From NCBI GenBank assembly GCA_023246145.1, contig JAHFIZ010000001.1, forward strand, positions 1 through 36,869: a DNA stretch of 36,869 nt, given 5' to 3'. The translations under genes were made by a program, and so were the position numbers. Positions 26,201 through 33,256 of this stretch are shown here, in pieces. The notes beneath the pieces were generated by a model. That model was not told the origin of the DNA, ran no database searches, and saw only the letters and a program-made list of their open reading frames with translations. The DNA comes from Candidatus Uhrbacteria bacterium. GTDB lineage: Bacteria > Patescibacteriota > Patescibacteriia > UBA9934. Each line of letters opens with the position of its first letter. Position 1 is the first letter of the stretch.

Positions 26201-27313
26201 CAGCTCACCATGCGTACCTTCCATACGGGAGGTGTGGCTGGAAAAGATATTACGCAGGGTCTTCCACGTGTTGAAGAACTCTTTGAGGCACGTCTCCCTA
26301 AGCGTAAGGCCATCATGACGGAAGTCTCCGGCAAGGTGGAGCTTGAAAAGGCGGAACGCACTGTGGTCCAGGCAGGAACCGGAAAAGAAATCGTAGATAC
26401 CACGCCTGGCCAGAAGATTGTGCGCGTGCGCTATGACGCTATAGAGGAAAAGCCGTTCGTCATTGGACGTGGTGCCAAGATCTCCGTGAAGGAAGGAGAA
26501 AAGGTACAGGCCGGAGATGTTATTGCTGAAAAGACAAGCGGTGAAAAGATTGTGACGGATGTGGGCGGTGTTGTGAAACTGGTGAAGACTTCCGTTCTCG
26601 TGCTTCATGAGGCTGAAAAGATTCGTGAATACATCATCCCGCACGGTTACACCATGTACGTGAAGGAAGGTGATCAGGTTTTGGCCGGTGACGCTTTGAC
26701 GGACGGTCACTTGGACCTCCAGGCGCTCTTTAAGGCCAAGGGCCAGTACGCCGTGCAGCTTTATCTCTCTAAGGAAATGCAGTTCATTTACTCTTCACAG
26801 GGTCAGAAGCTGAACAACAAGCATATTGAGGTCATGATCCGTCAGATGTTCTCCCGCGCCCGCATCATGGACCCGGGTGATACAGATCTTCTTCCAGGAG
26901 AAGTGGTGGAGAAGGCAGCGCTTTTGGACGAACAGGAGCGTATGGAAACCACCGGCGGAAAGATTGCTGAGTTTGAACAGTTGCTGCTTGGTGTGACCAA
27001 GGTTTCCCTTTCTACGGAAAGCTGGTTGTCATCCGCATCCTTCCAGGAAACGGCTCGCGTGCTTATTAACGCCGCTGTGACCGGAAAGATTGATGAGCTG
27101 GCAGGTCTTAAGGAAAACGTTATCATTGGCCGCTTGATTCCAAGCGGTACCGGATTCCCGGGCAATGAAGTGGTCCTGGATATCCCAACTCCTGCTGAAC
27201 CTGTTTCAGCCACTCCAGAAATCATGACGGAAATTGCTGCCGCAGGTCCTCAGGTAGGGGACTTGGCCGCAACAGAAGAGCGCATGGTGGAAGTGAAAGA
27301 GAAGGGGGACTAA
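23285..27313 (+). CDS. rpoC: DNA-directed RNA polymerase subunit beta'
   Basis: The zinc motif is CYCGKYKKIRYKGIVCDKCG, the catalytic motif is YNADFDGDQMAVH, and GEPGTQLTMRTFHTGG is also present. The ATG at 23285 follows the rpoB stop, and the ORF-track start at 23249 overlaps rpoB. Confidence 0.95.
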   Translation: MAMKFETLKSTDFDSIRLKVASPDVIRSWSYGEVTKPETINYRTQKPEKQGLFAEEIFGPSKDWECYCGKYKKIRYKGIVCDKCGVEVTQSSVRRERMGHIELAAPVTHIWFLRGVPSKIGTVLDLGVQAIEKVVYFGAFMITDVNEEARIQTIEQVKEEYKAKKKMIEGEKKRDTERLAEKFEGKKDELKAEIARIEAIADAKLEELEADFIQVDKDLKEIAPLKVISEATYHDWSMRYGHVFDAGIGAEAITKLLDRINISETIKKLTEELAATSSKAKYDRIMRRLKLFRALEKNGVQSSWMIMKVLPVIPPDLRPMVPLDGGRFATSDLNDLYRRVINRNNRLRRLFSLNAPEVITRNEKRMLQEAVDALIDNSARQSKTVIAATGKKRQLKSLADILKGKQGRFRQNLLGKRIDYSGRSVIVVGPHLQLDQCGIPKKMALELFRPFVISKLIAREYVHNIRSANRFIEGDRPEVWDILEEVTADSFVLLNRAPTLHRLGIQAFRPKLVEGKAIKIHPLVCEAYNADFDGDQMAVHVPLTAEARYEAEHIMLSIRNLLKPSFGGPVTTAGKDIAWASFYLTMTLTEPDEKTMKSFADKTEAMYALKQGAIKYQDWIRVRMDNGERIVTTAGRIIMNQVFPEKVGYQNKILGKKELANIIRDVLEYYGQEFTARILDELKELGFEYATRSGYSYSMHGLPDVPGKAEIILEGDKRILEIEDYFAQGLLTQSERHSQVIKVWTDVKDRIAELSKNIMPKDSSAYTMIESGARGAWGQLTQTIGMIGLKTSPSGDIIELPVKSSFKDGVSVLEFFISSHGVRKGLTDTALKTANAGYLTRRLVDVAQDVVVRLEDCGDDLGVVLTKAESDEIGEALLIRILGRFALSDVKLPGGRKAIIKAGELITEDHIRELKEAGTELEEAHVRSVMTCKVRRGVCQKCYGYDLAYNKLVKMGTAVGIMAAQSIGEPGTQLTMRTFHTGGVAGKDITQGLPRVEELFEARLPKRKAIMTEVSGKVELEKAERTVVQAGTGKEIVDTTPGQKIVRVRYDAIEEKPFVIGRGAKISVKEGEKVQAGDVIAEKTSGEKIVTDVGGVVKLVKTSVLVLHEAEKIREYIIPHGYTMYVKEGDQVLAGDALTDGHLDLQALFKAKGQYAVQLYLSKEMQFIYSSQGQKLNNKHIEVMIRQMFSRARIMDPGDTDLLPGEVVEKAALLDEQERMETTGGKIAEFEQLLLGVTKVSLSTESWLSSASFQETARVLINAAVTGKIDELAGLKENVIIGRLIPSGTGFPGNEVVLDIPTPAEPVSATPEIMTEIAAAGPQVGDLAATEERMVEVKEKGD

Positions 27314-27447
27314 CAGATTTACGCAGATCTCAAACGGTTAGGCAGATTAAACGCAGATTCAAAAAGCGAGTCCTGAATGGGCTCGTTTTTTGTTCTCTTC
27401 CCATCTGCGTAAAATCTGCCGTATGATTCATATCTGCGTAAATCTAT
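27314..27447. repeat. 134-bp element: two ~47-nt inverted arms with three ACGCAGAT-type boxes each, flanking the rpoC terminator
   Basis: Left-arm boxes are at 27321-27328 (ACGCAGAT), 27340-27347 (AGGCAGAT) and 27351-27358 (ACGCAGAT). Right-arm boxes are at 27403-27410 (ATCTGCGT), 27414-27421 (ATCTGCCG) and 27432-27439 (ATCTGCGT). The outer 14 nt, AGATTTACGCAGAT, is an exact inverted repeat. Confidence 0.55.
27366..27391 (+). terminator. Rho-independent terminator after rpoC
   Basis: CGAGTCC-TGAAT-GGGCTCG is followed by TTTTTT. Confidence 0.6.
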
Positions 27448-27451
27448 TTTC

Positions 27452-27931
27452 ATGAAAAAGCCAGCGCGCATCTTGGGCTTTGATCCGGGCTATGGACGCC
27501 TGGGTTTTGGCGTGATTGATGTGATTAAGGGCAAATCGTCCGCAGTGGCGTTTGGTGTGATTACCACCAAAGCCGGCACGCCGAGCCTGGATAGACTTAA
27601 AGAAATAGCGGCGGATGTTCGGGCCCTCATCAAGACTCATAAACCTGATGCCATGGGCATAGAGGAACTCTTTTTTGGGAAAAATGTGACTACGGCCATA
27701 AAAGTAGCTGAAGTACGGGGCGTCTTGCTTCTTTTGGCAGCTGAGAATGATCTTCCCGTAACGGAGTTAAAGCCGGTTGAGGTAAAGATGGCCTTAACGG
27801 GTTATGGCAAGGCAGATAAGAAGCAGATGCAGCAGATGGTAAAGACCGTTTTTGGTCTCACGAGCATCCCCAAACCTGATGACGCGGCAGATGCTTTAGC
27901 TATTGCTTGGGCAGCTTCTACAATGCGCTAA
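27452..27931 (+). CDS. ruvC: Holliday junction resolvase RuvC
   Basis: ILGFDPGYGRLGFGVI carries the catalytic Asp. IEELFFGKNVTTAIKVAEVRGV, ELKPVEVKMALTGYGKADKKQM and PDDAADALAIAW are also RuvC-like. Confidence 0.9.
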   Translation: MKKPARILGFDPGYGRLGFGVIDVIKGKSSAVAFGVITTKAGTPSLDRLKEIAADVRALIKTHKPDAMGIEELFFGKNVTTAIKVAEVRGVLLLLAAENDLPVTELKPVEVKMALTGYGKADKKQMQQMVKTVFGLTSIPKPDDAADALAIAWAASTMR

Positions 27932-27958
27932 TATTAGCCACATAACAGCCTTTTTACA

Positions 27959-27987
27959 TTGACAAAGGGTCGTTTTTGTGCTATTAT
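27959..27987 (+). promoter_or_regulatory. Near-consensus sigma70 promoter
   Basis: The site reads TTGACA (27959-27964)-17 nt-TATTAT (27982-27987). Confidence 0.6.
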
Positions 27988-27992
27988 ACGCA

Positions 27993-28097
27993 GTTACGTA
28001 AAAGGCTAGGAACAAAGCCTTTGGGGTACGTAACAATGATCCCGCGATCCCCAAGTACCCTTATACGGTAATGGAAATCGCGGGATTATCTGTTTCT
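27993..28097 (+). ncRNA. Structured RNA or 5' leader of unknown class
   Basis: The RNA starts at the predicted TSS. P1 is GTTACGTA (27993-28000)/TACGTAAC (28027-28034) and encloses AAAGGCT/AGCCTTT. The second stem is ATCCCGCGAT (28039-28048)/ATCGCGGGAT (28077-28086). Its loop (CCCCAAGTACCC) is complementary to TTGGGGTAC at 28021-28029, so a pseudoknot or alternative fold is possible. TGTTTCT follows. Confidence 0.35.
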
Positions 28098-28116
28098 GGC
28101 CACTGCGGCTAGAACT

Positions 28117-28164
28117 GCCCCCCAGTCTTCATCACTTTCCCCAAAGTGGTGATGACCGAGGGGC
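28117..28164 (+). repeat. Hairpin repeat copy 1
   Basis: GCCCCCCAGTCTTCATCAC-loop TTTCCCCAAA-GTGGTGATGACCGAGGGGC has 19 stem positions: 15 Watson-Crick pairs, 1 G-U and 3 mismatches (hand-paired). Confidence 0.6.
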
Positions 28165-28220
28165 AGAAATGCCACCAAGTTCACCACTGGGCCTTCGCGC
28201 CCGCAACTCTGGAGAACGCT

Positions 28221-28826
28221 ATGCGTTCTTTGACCGTGCTATTCGCTCTGACCCTCACTGCCTGTGGGGGAGAAGAGCAGGAAGTCGTCGCGGAACCCGT
28301 CGTCACCCTCGCGTCGGTCATTCAGGCCAACCTCGAGAAGTACAAGACGGCTTCCGAGGCGGAAAAGGATAAGTACGTCGAGCACGTTCGTCTTCATCCT
28401 GAGATGGAGGAAGAAGAGCAGCGTGATCACCTCCTTTGTCACCCCATGACGATCGAGGTTACCGTGGATTCCGATGTCACGAATGGGTGGACGTTGTTCA
28501 CTCATCCGGACGGCATCGGCTTCCCTCGCGCACATCCGATCGAATCCGCGGAGGCTGAGCCTGGCGTTTATACGCTCTCGCAGACCTACGCGGTCCACGT
28601 CGCCGGAGAGCGGATCGAGGTTCTGGCGGATGCCTACGCCACGAACGGCTCTCACTACACCTTTCCGCTTATCGACCCTCGCGTCGTGCCGAGCGGCGAG
28701 CGTGACCAGATCACGCAGATCAAGCTGGACGGCAAGGTGGCCGAGATCGGGGAGCAGGGCAAAGCGCCTTGTTTCTACTGGCTCGATTACGACCGGTACA
28801 AGCTCATCTGCCTCGCTCCAAAATGA
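28221..28826 (+). CDS. Lipoprotein of unknown function
   Basis: MRSLTVLFALTLTAC/GGEEQ is a signal peptide plus lipobox. A GGAGAA SD lies 5 nt upstream of the ATG at 28221. The ORF-track start at 28146 lies inside hairpin repeat copy 1. Codons are G/C-ending. Confidence 0.6.
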   Translation: MRSLTVLFALTLTACGGEEQEVVAEPVVTLASVIQANLEKYKTASEAEKDKYVEHVRLHPEMEEEEQRDHLLCHPMTIEVTVDSDVTNGWTLFTHPDGIGFPRAHPIESAEAEPGVYTLSQTYAVHVAGERIEVLADAYATNGSHYTFPLIDPRVVPSGERDQITQIKLDGKVAEIGEQGKAPCFYWLDYDRYKLICLAPK

Positions 28827-28834
28827 ATCGTCCG

Positions 28835-28855
28835 CGTGATGATTACGTCGTCACG
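28835..28855 (+). repeat. Possible minimal inverted copy of the hairpin-repeat core
   Basis: CGTGATGA-TTACG-TCGTCACG is an 8-bp hairpin. Its arms are the complement of the conserved inner stem (TCATCAC / GTGACGA) of the three larger copies. Confidence 0.3.
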
Positions 28856-28879
28856 CCGGCCCCATGGAACGTTTCGTGG

Positions 28880-28942
28880 GTCCCTCAGTCCTCATCATCT
28901 TTCAGCTTTCCCCAAGGCTCAGGATGGTGACGACCGAGGGGC
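28880..28942 (+). repeat. Hairpin repeat copy 2
   Basis: GTCCCTCAGTCCTCATCATC-loop (contains TTTCCCCAA)-GATGGTGACGACCGAGGGGC has 20 stem positions. Its 2 mismatches fall at the same relative positions as in copy 1. Confidence 0.6.
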
Positions 28943-28959
28943 AAAAGAATGTTTGGCCC

Positions 28960-29018
28960 GCCCACTAGTCCTCATCATCTTCCAGGTCCATGCCTCTGGA
29001 TGGTGACGACTAGTGGGC
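28960..29018 (+). repeat. Hairpin repeat copy 3 (terminator-like)
   Basis: GCCCACTAGTCCTCATCATC-loop-GATGGTGACGACTAGTGGGC has an outer stem changed on both arms relative to copy 2 (compensatory). It is followed by ATTTATTTTTCT. Confidence 0.6.
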
Positions 29019-29061
29019 ATTTATTTTTCTGCCATAGTTGCCATAAATGGCAGCATACGGC

Positions 29062-29091
29062 TTGACAAATCCTTTATTTCGTACCTATAAT
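29062..29091 (+). promoter_or_regulatory. Near-consensus sigma70 promoter with upstream palindrome
   Basis: The site reads TTGACA (29062-29067)-18 nt-TATAAT (29086-29091). The perfect palindrome TGCCAT-AA-ATGGCA (29039-29052) lies just upstream, with an extra GCCATA half-site at 29031-29036. Confidence 0.6.
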
Positions 29092-29136
29092 CGGCTGTTC
29101 ATCCACGGTGGGTGAACGTTCCAAGAGAGGTGACTC

Positions 29137-29517
29137 ATGACGTCCGCCGACTGGGCATATATCTTCGCACTTCTCATTGTAATTGTGCCGCCGTGCGTCT
29201 ATGTGACGTGGCAGCATGGCTTCTTCCCCTCGGAAACCTCGAGCCCGAAGAGGTACAGCGATTTTGTGATGGGCACCACAATTCTGCCCGGGCTTGGCCT
29301 TTTCGCGGTGTTCATCCGCGGCATCGCAGAGCCAAATGCGAGCACGTTCTTTCGACTGCTCTCGTGTGTCGCATTCCTCGCCCTCGTAATCGTGATTTTC
29401 TTTGTCGGCCCCATGGCCGCACGAACGGTGGAGCAGCGCCGTGAGATCGAGCGGCAAATAACTGAAGACAAGGAGAAGACCGAGCCGCCAAAAGACGGCA
29501 CCGCACCCCGCGCATAG
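29137..29517 (+). CDS. Small integral membrane protein (3 predicted TM helices), unknown function
   Basis: An AGAGAGG SD precedes the ATG at 29137. The hydrophobic segments are WAYIFALLIVIVPPCVYVTW, FVMGTTILPGLGLFAVFIRGI and FFRLLSCVAFLALVIVIFFVGPMA, followed by a charged tail. The opposite-strand ORFs are judged spurious. Confidence 0.55.
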   Translation: MTSADWAYIFALLIVIVPPCVYVTWQHGFFPSETSSPKRYSDFVMGTTILPGLGLFAVFIRGIAEPNASTFFRLLSCVAFLALVIVIFFVGPMAARTVEQRREIERQITEDKEKTEPPKDGTAPRA

Positions 29518-29526
29518 CGCTAGAAG

Positions 29527-29565
29527 GACCACCGCGTCCTCGCGCTGTCGCGGGGTCTTTCTTTT
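29527..29565 (+). terminator. Rho-independent terminator after the membrane-protein gene
   Basis: GACC(A)CCGCG ... CGCGGGGTC forms a hairpin followed by TTTCTTTT. Confidence 0.55.
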
Positions 29566-29571
29566 GCAAAC

Positions 29572-29604
29572 AAAAAATCCTCCGCGTGAAGCAGGGGATT
29601 TTTT
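29572..29604. terminator. Bidirectional terminator abutting the 3' end of the tmRNA-like gene
   Basis: AAAAAA-TCCTCCGC-GTGAA-GCAGGGGA-TTTTTT. On the minus strand it follows directly after ...GCTCCA. Confidence 0.6.
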
Positions 29605-29852
29605 GGAGCGGGTGGAGGGAGTCGAACCCTCATCATGAGTTTGGAAAAAAATCCAGGGCTAACGAACGGAAATCTACAATCCACCAATGAACACACGGAA
29701 AATCCGCTGATACAGGCGGATTTTTCGTATCCGGCGGCTTTCGTCAACCTTCGTCTCCCGTACCCTCCGATCTCCAGGTTTAGGCTGCATTTGGGCAACC
29801 GGTGGGCAACGCGTCTGCGTTGACGTACCATGCCCCCGAATTGCGACGCACC
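29604..29852 (-). ncRNA. ssrA: tmRNA-like gene segment (ssrA-like); 5' acceptor strand not identified
   Basis: The minus strand ends GAGGG-TTCGACT-CCCTC-CACCCGC-T-CCA, which is a T-arm, a 3' acceptor strand and CCA, followed by a terminator. About 175 nt upstream is a tag-like frame GCA GAC GCG TTG CCC ACC GGT TGC CCA AAT GCA GCC TAA (ADALPTGCPNAA-stop, 29818-29780) in a GCAGCC-TAA-ACCTG context like known tags. I found no GGGG-type 5' strand able to pair with the 3' end. Confidence 0.45.
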
Positions 29853-29860
29853 ACGGACTG

Positions 29861-31504
29861 CTAGAGATGAAAGTCGGCGTAGGGCTGACCGTCGGGTAGG
29901 TTGGCTTGGTCTACCGTCCAGCGATCGCCGCCGAAACGGCGGGGCCACCAGCGCACGAAATACCTACCGCTTCGAAGGTACACGGCACCAAAGGAGTACC
30001 CGAAGGAGTCCCGAGGCTCACTTTCCGGTGGGTGGGTAGCGCCCGCGGAGAACCGCACATAGCGACTTCCATCGCTCGACATGAACGCGCCGGCTCGCTG
30101 GTCATGAACATGGCCGGAGAGGTGGATGACGGGCGATCGCGCGGCAATTTGGGTAGCCGCCCGCTCGTCCCGGAGCCACCCTCCCTCAAACGGATGATGG
30201 GTCAGGAGGATTGTTGGGTGGGAGCCGCCAGCGATACCGCGCGAGAGCACGTTAAGCCGTACCTCGCCCAGGTCGAGCTTGCCGACGTCGTCTTTCCAGC
30301 TGAACAGCGCGGAATTGAGCCCCACTATGTTGAAACGCCGGGCATCATCGGCGATCCGCGACCAAAATAGCTCCCCCGCGCCGAATGCTCCAACGCGTCG
30401 GACAAATTCCGCATAGTGGCGAAATCTCCGATGCAATGCGTCCCGAGACTGTCTCTTCGAAATGATCTGGTCGACGTCGATCCCTTTCAGCCGCGCGGAC
30501 AGGACCATGTACTTGATAAACTCCGTGTTGGCCGTAATGGACCAATCTACATCGTGATTGCCGGGCACGATGTAGATCGACTGCCGCGGGATCTGAAGCA
30601 CCGTATCAGCGAGATTCTCGAGCCAGGCCCTGGCAAGGTCATACTGCTTGAGGTTTCGGTACGGCCCCATGGTGGGCGCGACCCCATTCGAGCCGGAGAA
30701 TGCGACGTCGCCAGTGAAGAAGATCTGCTGCGGAAGTTCGATCTGCAGAGCGCTGTTGTTTAGCGCTTGTTGAATGTCTACCACGACCCCTTCCATCACG
30801 CGTGCTTGGTTCCAAGAGTGCGTCGTTGTCCCATGACCAACGTGCAAGTCTGATAGGTGGACCCAGGAACATACCACCGTATCCGATTTTGGCCGTGCCA
30901 TCGGCGTCTCGAATAGCTCAAGTTGGACGCGCGTCTTGAACGCAGCGGTGAGGACGGTTGGGTTTGTCAGCTCCTTTTCGAGGCGGACGCCGAAAGCATC
31001 CGTCGGAATCGGCGTTACTTGGATGCTGAGTTTCCAACGCTTTCGCGGAACGCTTGGGCTGACGCTTGCAATCGAGTAGAGCGTAAGCTCGCCGACCTCG
31101 GATAGACGGTCGCCGCGGATATTCAGCGTCATGGCGGACTCACCCTCGAACTCCGCCGTCTCGATCAGCGAGTAGTTGTCTACCAGTGCGTGATCGCGGC
31201 AGTAGTGATTGAGCAACCGAATGTCGCCTGTATTTGCCTCCTTTTTGTTTACCTTCACGCGCACGCGCAAGGTCTTTAATCGATTGTGTAGGCCTGGAAT
31301 TCCGAATTTAGACTCATCCGTGAGTGCGATGCGGATCTTGTGCATGAACACATGCGAGTCCCGTCCGTGCTCCGTTGCGCGTTGAATCGTGGCCAGACAG
31401 CGACTTAATCGCGCGTTCACGACGGCGCCGTCTAGCTGGACTGCGGGCGCATAGTCGACCACGTTGAGCGCGAATCCGAAGAATCGTTCGAGCAGCTGTG
31501 GCAT
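29861..31504 (-). CDS. Calcineurin-like metallophosphoesterase with ~205-aa N-terminal domain of unknown function
   Basis: All five MPE motifs occur in order: HLSDLHVGH (D219/H221), FFTGDVAF (GD 265-266), VPGNHD (315-318), LLTHHP (436-437) and LSGHVHD (464-467). I recognise nothing in the N-terminal 205 aa. Confidence 0.7.
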   Translation of the reverse strand: MPQLLERFFGFALNVVDYAPAVQLDGAVVNARLSRCLATIQRATEHGRDSHVFMHKIRIALTDESKFGIPGLHNRLKTLRVRVKVNKKEANTGDIRLLNHYCRDHALVDNYSLIETAEFEGESAMTLNIRGDRLSEVGELTLYSIASVSPSVPRKRWKLSIQVTPIPTDAFGVRLEKELTNPTVLTAAFKTRVQLELFETPMARPKSDTVVCSWVHLSDLHVGHGTTTHSWNQARVMEGVVVDIQQALNNSALQIELPQQIFFTGDVAFSGSNGVAPTMGPYRNLKQYDLARAWLENLADTVLQIPRQSIYIVPGNHDVDWSITANTEFIKYMVLSARLKGIDVDQIISKRQSRDALHRRFRHYAEFVRRVGAFGAGELFWSRIADDARRFNIVGLNSALFSWKDDVGKLDLGEVRLNVLSRGIAGGSHPTILLTHHPFEGGWLRDERAATQIAARSPVIHLSGHVHDQRAGAFMSSDGSRYVRFSAGATHPPESEPRDSFGYSFGAVYLRSGRYFVRWWPRRFGGDRWTVDQANLPDGQPYADFHL

Positions 31505-31841
31505 GGCAGGCTCCGCTGGTTCAGCGGCAGGTTACGTAAGGTGACGCGCGGCCGGGCGCAAGCGAAAAGCGACGGGTCCATGAGAGGACCCGCCGCTCGG
31601 TGTCACCACCCGCGTTCCGTTGCATCAGCGAGGGAACGCGACGAAATGCTATTGTCGCGGGTTTCGGCGGATAATCTGCAGCTTACCGCATGTTGACATC
31701 GCCACGGTACGGCAATCTCAAGGCGACTGTCAACCTTGCGAATAGGCGGTGAATCCCGCGGGGACACGGCTGGCGCGACTTAGCCAAGTCTTGCGAGCAT
31801 GGCACACCGACCTAACCCCTTGAGTGCGTCCCCTTGGAGAA

Positions 31842-33059
31842 TCACGCCCGTTGACGGGTCTCTTCGTGATCTAGCAGGGCGGTGGCTCGCGCGAGGAGCT
31901 CATCGAAGGTGATGATCTCTGGGTTGAGGAGGTTTCGCCGATACAGCTCGAACGACCCGAACTGCGGCTCGTTGATCTCGTTGTCGCGCTCGAACTCGGT
32001 TAGCGACCCGATGACAACGTAGGCTTTCGGTTGAAACATGAACGCCTGGTCGAGGCGATACCCCTCCGCGTGGCGCGGTTCCGAGCGGACCCGAACCATC
32101 GCCTTCTGTACGGTTTTCTGGACTTGAGCGACGCCGCCGGCGAGCTCGGCCGACGGCGCCCAACACTCACCCCGGTAGGCGGGTCGGTGCATGAGTTTCG
32201 TCGTGTGCGTCTTGATCTCGATGAAGCAGAGGCTTTGCACCGTGCCGATCGTCTTCATCAGGGCGTCGACTCGTTTCCCCGCTTCCTCGAAGGTGGCTCC
32301 TGTTGTCACCGCTTCGAGCGACGGCTCGTGGAATTTCGACATGAGCACGAGTCGCAGCGACATCCCGAAAATCCACGGATTAGCCTCGAAAAACTTCTGC
32401 CAAAGCGATTCGTCGCCGCGCAGTTCGAGCCGCACCTTTTCCGCCTCGAAGTAGGCAACATCATCGAGGAGGCGCCGAAAGCGCGTGAGCTGTTCCCGGC
32501 GGTAGGCGAGCGACACGACGTCGCGCTCGGAGAACTCGTGACGGATCAGGTGTTCCGCGACCCCTGGATTCCGGCGCACCCACTCCATTCCGGCCTTCTC
32601 GTCACCGTTGAGGAGATCGACAACGCGGCCGGTCGAGCCCTGACGGGCCGCCTGCGCGACGAGGGCCGAGAAGAGGCTCGAGAGAAGCTCGAACTGCTCG
32701 TCGTTGAGTTCAGCCTCTGCGGGCAAGCGGGAGAGCGCCTGGTTCGCCATGTGCAGCACGCGCGGCACGTAGTCGAGAGCCTGCATGCCAGTGAGCGCCT
32801 CCACCTGCTCGCGCCACTGAGAACCGCGGATCAGGTCCGCGAGTGCGGTCGGGTTGTCGGCCGCGGCGGCGAGCGTCGTGAGTGCGTTTGCGTCGTCAGC
32901 CGCGCCGGCCACGAGCGCCGTCGACCGAAGGTGCCGGGCGCGCCGCAGAAAATCCACACCGAAGACGATGCACGTCGACCCGTCGTCCAAACGATGAAGT
33001 TGCCGCGCGATGCCGGCCCGCTGGGTCAGGAGCAGGGTGATCTGCTCGCCGCGGGCCAC
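31842..33059 (-). CDS. Shedu-like (DUF4263-type) PD-(D/E)xK nuclease
   Basis: The C-terminal core is WQKFFEANPWIFG...GKRVDALM...LCFIEIKTHTTKL...GGVAQVQKTVQK...AYVVIGS. That matches my recollection of the DUF4263/SduA nuclease core (D265, E281, K283). The N-terminal region is variable. The start is GTG, and the frame stays open 159 nt further upstream without a canonical start. Confidence 0.65.
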   Translation of the reverse strand: MARGEQITLLLTQRAGIARQLHRLDDGSTCIVFGVDFLRRARHLRSTALVAGAADDANALTTLAAAADNPTALADLIRGSQWREQVEALTGMQALDYVPRVLHMANQALSRLPAEAELNDEQFELLSSLFSALVAQAARQGSTGRVVDLLNGDEKAGMEWVRRNPGVAEHLIRHEFSERDVVSLAYRREQLTRFRRLLDDVAYFEAEKVRLELRGDESLWQKFFEANPWIFGMSLRLVLMSKFHEPSLEAVTTGATFEEAGKRVDALMKTIGTVQSLCFIEIKTHTTKLMHRPAYRGECWAPSAELAGGVAQVQKTVQKAMVRVRSEPRHAEGYRLDQAFMFQPKAYVVIGSLTEFERDNEINEPQFGSFELYRRNLLNPEIITFDELLARATALLDHEETRQRA

Positions 33060-33256
33060 GCGTGGCGCGAGCTCCCGATCGAGCGAACGAAAGCCTGGGA
33101 AGCTCGTCTTGCGAAAGTCGCCCCCGCCGTCGTTCCACCAAAAATCATGGTAGACCTTGACTCCCGGCCTGGGGTGCGAACGGCACGGACCCCACGCTCG
33201 GAACGAACCTAGCGCGTGTCACACCGCGCGCTGGCCAGCAGGCCGACAACTGCACG

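Follow-up and report, generated by a model that had tools for sequence, protein, structure and literature searches.

Introduction

In integration of the mycobacteriophage L5 type, a tRNA-Gly gene is the attB, and the common core, about 43 bp long, covers the 3′ part of that gene. When a genomic island enters a tRNA gene, the gene is split; the attP copy carried by the island regenerates it at one border, and the opposite border is marked by the displaced fragment (PMC4383910). In the Islander survey of such tDNA islands (Hudson, Lau and Williams 2015, PMC4383910), a 3′ fragment was left by 3760 of 3919 islands. The crossover sites were classed by their sublocation, following Williams 2002 as cited in that survey, with site A in the anticodon loop and site J at the T-loop/acceptor junction; the anticodon-centred site A was used by 2083 of the 3919. 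A comparable arrangement has been described for the PYG1 island of Pyrococcus yayanosii, which is flanked by a 44-bp repeat of tRNA-Gln (PMC9897764).

We analyzed a stretch of 36,869 nucleotides (the window) that constitutes contig C1 of a Candidatus Uhrbacteria genome of 0.89 Mb (assembly GCA_023246145.1; 76 contigs, ∼50% GC, estimated to be 95% complete). A first-pass annotation of the window had proposed a tmRNA-like gene lacking its 5′ acceptor strand, either an att-site remnant or a disrupted ssrA. Our analysis corrects this misreading: the locus carries the scar of a tRNA-Gly gene and not a crippled tmRNA. The piece in question is almost certainly a 3′ fragment of tRNA-Gly(UCC) that bounds a foreign defence island, probably displaced when the island integrated at the anticodon loop.

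Results and Discussion

Identity of the tRNA fragment

BLAST of window positions 27300–29760 against 40 relatives led to a short segment near ruvC, which ARAGORN calls as an intact tRNA-Gly(TCC). The minus strand of the window is identical at 45 of 45 positions to residues 31–75 of the 75-nt tRNA-Gly(TCC) of four genomes from the same genus (G006, G008, G016 and G017), with an E-value of 1e-17. When the window is aligned to the intact genes, identity begins at TTTTCCAAAC, tRNA position 31, at the 5′ edge of the anticodon loop. Positions 1–30 are absent from the window, which accordingly holds no complete 1–75 cloverleaf. From 29648 down to 29604, the piece consists of the last base of the anticodon stem, the loop UU-UCC-AA, the variable region, the T-arm, the 3′ strand of the acceptor stem, U73 and CCA; the letters of the minus strand across the region read ...GCCCTGGATTT, then TTTTCCAAACTCATGATGAGGGTTCGACTCCCTCCACCCGCTCCA, then AAAAATCCCCTGCTTCACGCGGAGGATTTTTTG. 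Its anticodon loop, T-arm and acceptor 3′ strand, together with U73 and CCA, match the tRNA-Gly(UCC) of the lineage, and since it covers positions 31–75 including CCA, it is a terminal 3′ piece of the gene and not an internal one. The last 25 nt of the fragment gave no match in 100 shuffles. The real signal, far beyond chance, is confined to 29604–29648 plus the terminator that follows it (Table 1).

Table 1. Coordinates of the features at and around the tRNA-Gly(UCC) fragment, given as window positions
Feature	Position	Strand	Basis or remark
ruvC, conserved backbone gene next to the tRNA-Gly gene (3′ side)	27452–27931	plus	
Variable segment of 1.6 kb that separates ruvC from the tRNA terminator	27932–29569		GC 55.6%
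Lipoprotein-like ORF in the variable segment	28146–28826	plus	
Small membrane-protein ORF in the variable segment	29137–29517	plus	
Terminator native to the tRNA gene, made of A-run, hairpin and T-run	29570–29603	minus	folds as hairpin
Displaced tRNA-Gly(UCC) 3′ piece (probable att remnant)	29604–29648	minus	45 nt, tRNA positions 31–75
Visible part of the GC-rich foreign island, in place of the 5′ 30 nt of the tRNA	29649–36869		at least 7.2 kb, runs off the contig end
Terminator-like hairpin behind the phosphoesterase gene	29699–29725	minus	AAAAATCCGC/GCGGATTTT; sequence and fold
Calcineurin-like metallophosphoesterase	29861–31504	minus	Pfam Metallophos E=2.5e-8
Shedu (SduA) defence nuclease	31842–33059	minus	Pfam SduA_C E=3.2e-29; PADLOC SduA 326.7 bits
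B3/4-domain protein	34597–35259	minus	Pfam B3_4 E=4.7e-15
PHP-domain protein with ATPase-like part, 5′ end off the contig	35256–36869	minus	Pfam PHP E=2.9e-6

In an order-wide survey of 162 genomes, a near-full-length copy of the tRNA was found in 104 of the others, and all but three of these copies span positions 1–75. An ordinary, continuous tRNA-Gly(TCC) gene is present in each of the 18 same-genus relatives, and the source genome alone among the 162 has a perfect 31–75 piece as its sole match. The fragment is single-copy both in the window and in the bin; in the window, there is no second fragment either as a direct repeat or with up to three mismatches. An Rfam scan of 27300–36869 at a relaxed E-value returned only an insignificant sRNA match.

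The similarity to the relatives reaches beyond the tRNA into the flank that contains the terminator, with 84–86% identity over 29567–29648. The same succession of A-run, hairpin and T-run stands behind the intact tRNA in G002, G006, G008, G015 and G016. As the intact gene of the relatives has this same terminator architecture, the fragment has retained its native downstream flank.

Relationship to ssrA

The first-pass annotation had placed a tmRNA-like gene at 29604–29952. Its reading of the 3′ end was accurate: on the minus strand, a T-arm (GAGGG-TTCGACT-CCCTC) precedes CACCCGC-T-CCA, which ends at 29604, and the terminator follows the CCA immediately. A 5′ acceptor strand is indeed absent from the sequence, and the only candidate that had been suggested for it, GCTGGTG, lies where it was reported (29952–29946), within the phosphoesterase ORF. 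The gene itself, which ARAGORN and the tmRNA covariance models recognize by a tRNA-like domain with a tag reading frame and pseudoknots, could not be recovered. ARAGORN finds no gene in the window and Rfam reports none at gathering scores; covariance models run on 29400–30100 return none of the tmRNA families when the cut-off is relaxed to E≤10, and the best score within the tRNA clan, 15 bits, is noise.

Other elements that had been counted towards a tmRNA exist but carry a different meaning or little weight. The 8-bp hairpin is present (29725–29699); it is the terminator behind the phosphoesterase gene and not a part of a tmRNA. A tag-like frame with the ending ...N-A-A-TAA can be read up to 29780, although it comprises just three codons and a stop, and is recognized by no tmRNA finder. 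The reported dip in G+C amounts to 55.2% in 29649–29860 versus 57.7% and 58.6% in the flanking ORFs, a marginal difference.

U73 and a G3:C70 pair are features of glycine tRNAs, while tmRNA and alanine identity is defined by a G3:U70 pair and A73. An alanine or tmRNA identity was considered for the fragment and rejected: CACCCGC implies C70, and thus G3:C70 instead of G3:U70, the discriminator is T and not A73, and there is no 5′ strand. Disruption of ssrA is contradicted by an intact ssrA on contig C33 (C33:4257-4662, 98.7 bits), for which ARAGORN gives a tag peptide and whose 3′ end reads ...GGGAGTTCAATTCTCCCCGGGTCCACCA. We also considered a copy of the ssrA 3′ end, but the 3′ end on C33 is unrelated to the piece in the window and BLAST shows no similarity between them. 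What speaks for a remnant or disrupted copy of ssrA is a 3′ end of generic tRNA-like type with a terminator behind it, and nothing more; set against the lack of any tmRNA call by ARAGORN or Rfam, the U discriminator, the intact gene on C33 and the 45/45 match to tRNA-Gly(TCC), the probability of this reading is close to nil. The observation was real but mislabelled, and the tmRNA assignment is refuted.

Locus context and synteny

In the genus, the genes follow one another as rpoC, (c5), ruvC, tRNA-Gly on the opposite strand, c2, c4 and c6, where c2, c4, c5 and c6 are our own labels for conserved neighbouring genes (c4 is SMC-like). Of the 13 loci examined in relatives, 11 have a RuvC of 54–74% identity next to tRNA-Gly(TCC). 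In the source genome, rpoC and ruvC lie in the window, and c2, c4 and c6 are found on contig C30, with c2 running off the start of that contig about 37 C-terminal residues short. From ruvC, the layout therefore runs through the 1.6-kb variable segment to the tRNA terminator with its fragment, and then through other DNA of at least 7.2 kb and the assembly gap to c2. With c2 on C30, synteny predicts the tRNA 5′ part and its connection to c2 at the very place that the island occupies.

The variable segment between ruvC and the terminator is separate from the island that split the tRNA. Both of its ORFs have a strong promoter (at 27959 and 29062). The segment has no Pfam or PADLOC match, and no coding-DNA match in 40 relatives.

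This locus is prone to rearrangement. The tRNA and its terminator are inverted relative to ruvC and c2 in G006, G008 and G016, and these genomes as well as G010 and G017 have GC-rich DNA at the locus, in which we detected no att repeat, no recognizable integrase and no Pfam-recognizable genes. Such changes would favour a truncation that was not site-specific, whether by illegitimate recombination, deletion or inversion; the fragment would then be a pseudogene relic, and a working tRNA-Gly(UCC), unlinked to the island, would have escaped assembly. The search of the bin, which yielded neither an integrase nor a second copy, is in keeping with this explanation. However, the tRNA is broken at the anticodon-loop sublocation, which about half of the tDNA islands use; the piece is cleanly terminal with no mutation in 45 nt, and the first base beyond it already belongs to foreign DNA. 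We regard a truncation of this kind as unlikely.

The foreign island

The proposal, made in the first-pass annotation, of an att-type remnant at the edge of an island that extends to the right is borne out: the DNA on that side, with a GC content of 61%, is foreign to the order; defence genes are among its contents, and it begins exactly at the break in the tRNA. The base directly after tRNA identity stops is the first of the foreign DNA (29648/29649). The composition changes abruptly, with a GC content of 51.1% in the backbone (1–27931) and 61.2% in the island. A search of the other 161 genomes of the order gave no DNA match to the island. Its visible part of at least 7.2 kb is within the 2–200 kb range applied to Islander islands, and both its composition and the lack of matches in the order mark its content as foreign to the relatives.

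The gene nearest to the fragment encodes a metallophosphoesterase that matches the PADLOC models PDC-S60 (E=2e-12) and an endonuclease-type effector (E=4.6e-10). Its N-terminal region has no assigned domain. The Shedu gene beyond it is the sole copy in the genome. For the PHP-ATPase at the contig end, the nearest named relatives are from a Myxococcota MAG (61%) and Sporomusa (55%); these named relatives are distant and share no neighbours with it, and none was found in viral contigs. Pfam identifies no recombinase in the visible 7.2 kb. We conclude that this is a horizontally acquired anti-phage defence island. The tRNA fragment thus fixes one precise boundary of a Shedu-bearing island from a GC-rich donor in a very small genome.

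Independent assembly of the junction

A Logan contig from run SRR14366796 (same sample) equals window positions 27442–29633 exactly. This match shows that ruvC, the GC-richer 1.6-kb segment and the tRNA 3′ end are not a chimeric join. Logan graphs are built from 31-mers (PMC12424806), and the contig takes in just 30 nt of the fragment (k-1 for k=31) before it ends; the graph therefore branches at the base after CCA. The branch implies a second molecule in the sample that shares the tRNA 3′ end and has a different 3′ flank. A restored gene at the far end of the island is expected to look like this, and another species with the same tRNA could equally account for it.

The junction on the other side of the fragment bears on a different concern, namely that the assembler joined the 3′ flank of the host tRNA-Gly at the shared 45-mer to another replicon or organism, for example through the attP of an episomal element. 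The abrupt change of composition and the branching of the Logan graph inside the fragment would both be compatible with such a chimera. Yet a tRNA segment shared with another organism would yield a complete-looking tRNA and not a 45-nt piece abutting non-tRNA DNA; consequently, a 45-nt fragment beside island DNA must exist in some molecule anyway. Nor does any contig of the bin join a tRNA 5′ half to c2, as an empty site would. The small ORF on the left and the Shedu gene on the right each occur in a second record of 50–200 kb, possibly on different contigs, and GC-rich stretches are embedded in several other contigs of the bin. Taken together, these observations make an assembly artefact quite improbable.

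The missing tRNA and the integrase

Neither an intact tRNA-Gly(TCC) nor a 5′ half of this tRNA is present in the bin, and the 45 nt do not recur in it. The glycine tRNAs that ARAGORN finds in the bin are Gly-GCC and Gly-CCC only, and GGA codons are frequent in the backbone (43, 23 and 25 in three genes). With GGA so common and these two glycine tRNAs alone in the bin, the genome must have an intact UCC gene that the assembled contigs do not include; by synteny, its place would be in the gap just before the start of C30. It is very improbable that tRNA-Gly(UCC) is truly broken with no restored copy, with GGA decoded through a split tRNA, an island-borne tRNA or some other source.

A split tRNA gene deserves separate mention. 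Under this hypothesis, the 3′ half would be expressed alone and joined or paired in trans with a separate 5′ half. The break does adjoin the anticodon loop, a weak promoter-like site (9/12) lies upstream on the same strand at 29747–29720, and the bin is without an intact gene. However, no 5′ half was found anywhere in the bin, the gene is continuous in 18 of 18 same-genus relatives, and what lies upstream of the fragment is a foreign gene's 3′ end together with the terminator of that gene. We therefore give a split gene almost no credence.

The preferred explanation, which we consider likely, is that the fragment was displaced by an island that integrated at the anticodon-loop site, and that the restored tRNA and the integrase are in the assembly gap. 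A GC-rich mobile island would have recombined site-specifically with the anticodon-loop sublocation of the single tRNA-Gly(UCC) gene. The island's attP copy of 45 nt would have restored the full tRNA at the far end, beside the integrase, and the original 3′ end of the tRNA would have been pushed to the near end and left as an inert scar. As the restored copy and the integrase are unseen in the bin, we infer the events at the far end, and with them the recombination mechanism itself.

The bin contains one tyrosine recombinase (C9:726-1703), with orthologues of 61–83% identity in 18 of the 20 relatives searched; this distribution identifies it as the housekeeping Xer. A large serine recombinase is encoded on contig C3 beside tRNA-Glu and belongs to another locus. 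Contig C1 ends inside the island, and no contig of the bin overlaps its end. Attempts to reach the far end by protein look-ups gave short Logan contigs or nothing, and exact-pattern scans of metagenome contigs gave nothing. A contig consisting mostly of island DNA at 61% GC may easily have been lost in binning. The probable reason why the bin lacks an essential tRNA is thus that the gene lies with the GC-rich far end of the island and was left unassembled or unbinned. An intact gene together with a 45-nt fragment at this tRNA occurs in none of the 161 other genomes of the order, so that integration here is not a documented habit of the lineage.

Comparison with known integration systems

Integration sites at ssrA 3′ ends resemble this locus in their logic, as a tRNA-like 3′ end serves as the target of integration; they differ in that the sequence in the window is not ssrA and the genome's own ssrA is intact on C33. 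The mycobacteriophage L5 system likewise differs in its host, isoacceptor and element, and no phage genes are visible in the window. PYG1 is closer, with a tRNA 3′ fragment of almost the same length (44 versus 45 nt) belonging to an integrative element, and confusion with an RNA gene is, as here, possible for this and the other tRNA fragments discussed in PMC9897764. In PYG1, however, one replicon holds the two repeats as well as the intact gene, whereas the fragment stands alone in the window.

The closest parallel is with the tDNA islands of Islander (PMC4383910). One end of the element is visible here. Islander requires a full-length cognate tRNA on the same replicon, upstream of the 3′ fragment and oriented like it, as well as a tyrosine integrase within the island; both are absent from the assembly. 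In other respects, the likeness is close: the window has a terminal 3′ piece of 45 nt that starts at site A, with the break at position 31, and this piece keeps its native downstream flank and abuts compositionally foreign DNA with accessory (defence) genes. A 45-nt fragment that starts at the anticodon loop, ends in its native terminator and has foreign DNA at the next base fits the tDNA-island pattern. Features of this kind are well known, and the fragment is an ordinary, textbook scar.

Rearrangements at the tRNA-Gly locus in related genomes

In three species of the same genus (G006, G016 and G008), an intact tRNA-Gly(TCC) gene lies, together with its terminator, in inverted orientation with respect to ruvC. 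The same inversion holds with respect to the conserved neighbour gene c2 in G006 and G008. In all three genomes, 4.5–6 kb of DNA, mostly of 54–61% GC, separates ruvC from the 5′ side of the tRNA; ten of the open reading frames within this DNA had no Pfam match.

The ancestral orientation of tRNA-Gly is retained in another relative, G017. Here, 5.5 kb of GC-rich DNA begins directly 3′ of the CCA of the tRNA, the native terminator is absent, and no att-like repeat of tRNA-Gly was detectable at the locus. Located 57 nt upstream of this tRNA-Gly is an odd tRNA-like gene, labelled ‘tRNA-?(Thr|Asp)’ by ARAGORN, whose anticodon loop has 6 nt.

Coordinates of the loci and features described
Feature	Genome	Location
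Inverted tRNA-Gly locus	G006	L022 2180–7127
Inverted tRNA-Gly locus	G016	L023 1210–5828
Inverted tRNA-Gly locus	G008	L024 4479–10558
tRNA-Gly locus, ancestral orientation	G017	L021 4207–9694
Odd tRNA-like gene	G017	L021 3999–4075
ACGCAGAT-box element	G000	window 27316–27448
Promoter and transcript start	G000	window 27927–27990
PHP-ATPase gene	G000	window 35256–36869
Large serine recombinase	G000	contig C3 5179–6727

Foreign DNA and recurring elements beyond the locus

Embedded stretches of 1–2.5 kb with at least 57% GC occur in many contigs of the genome to which the window belongs (G000, with an overall GC content of roughly 50%), among them C3, C17, C26, C43 and C62; thus, foreign GC-rich DNA is also present outside the window. 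Contig C3 also encodes, near tRNA-Glu(CTC), a large serine recombinase with a Resolvase domain (110 bits) inside a 504-aa open frame, which may be part of another integrated element.

The PHP-ATPase of the island has no neighbouring genes in common with its named relatives, and its last 135 residues are unmatched in them, the alignment being confined to residues 1–402.

The intergenic region between rpoC and ruvC holds a dispersed repeat, a palindromic ACGCAGAT-box element. BLAST found further copies, at 74–89% identity, on five other G000 contigs (C51, C23, C67, C68 and C34) and in relatives G008 and G003. Downstream of ruvC lies a strong promoter (TTGACA-17-TATTAT) with the beginning of its non-coding transcript. 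This segment has no Rfam match, and BLAST matched it at 76–91% to other loci in G016, G008, G017, G002, G014, G019 and G023, of which two are from the wider family and the others from the same genus. These matches suggest a recurring promoter or small-RNA module.
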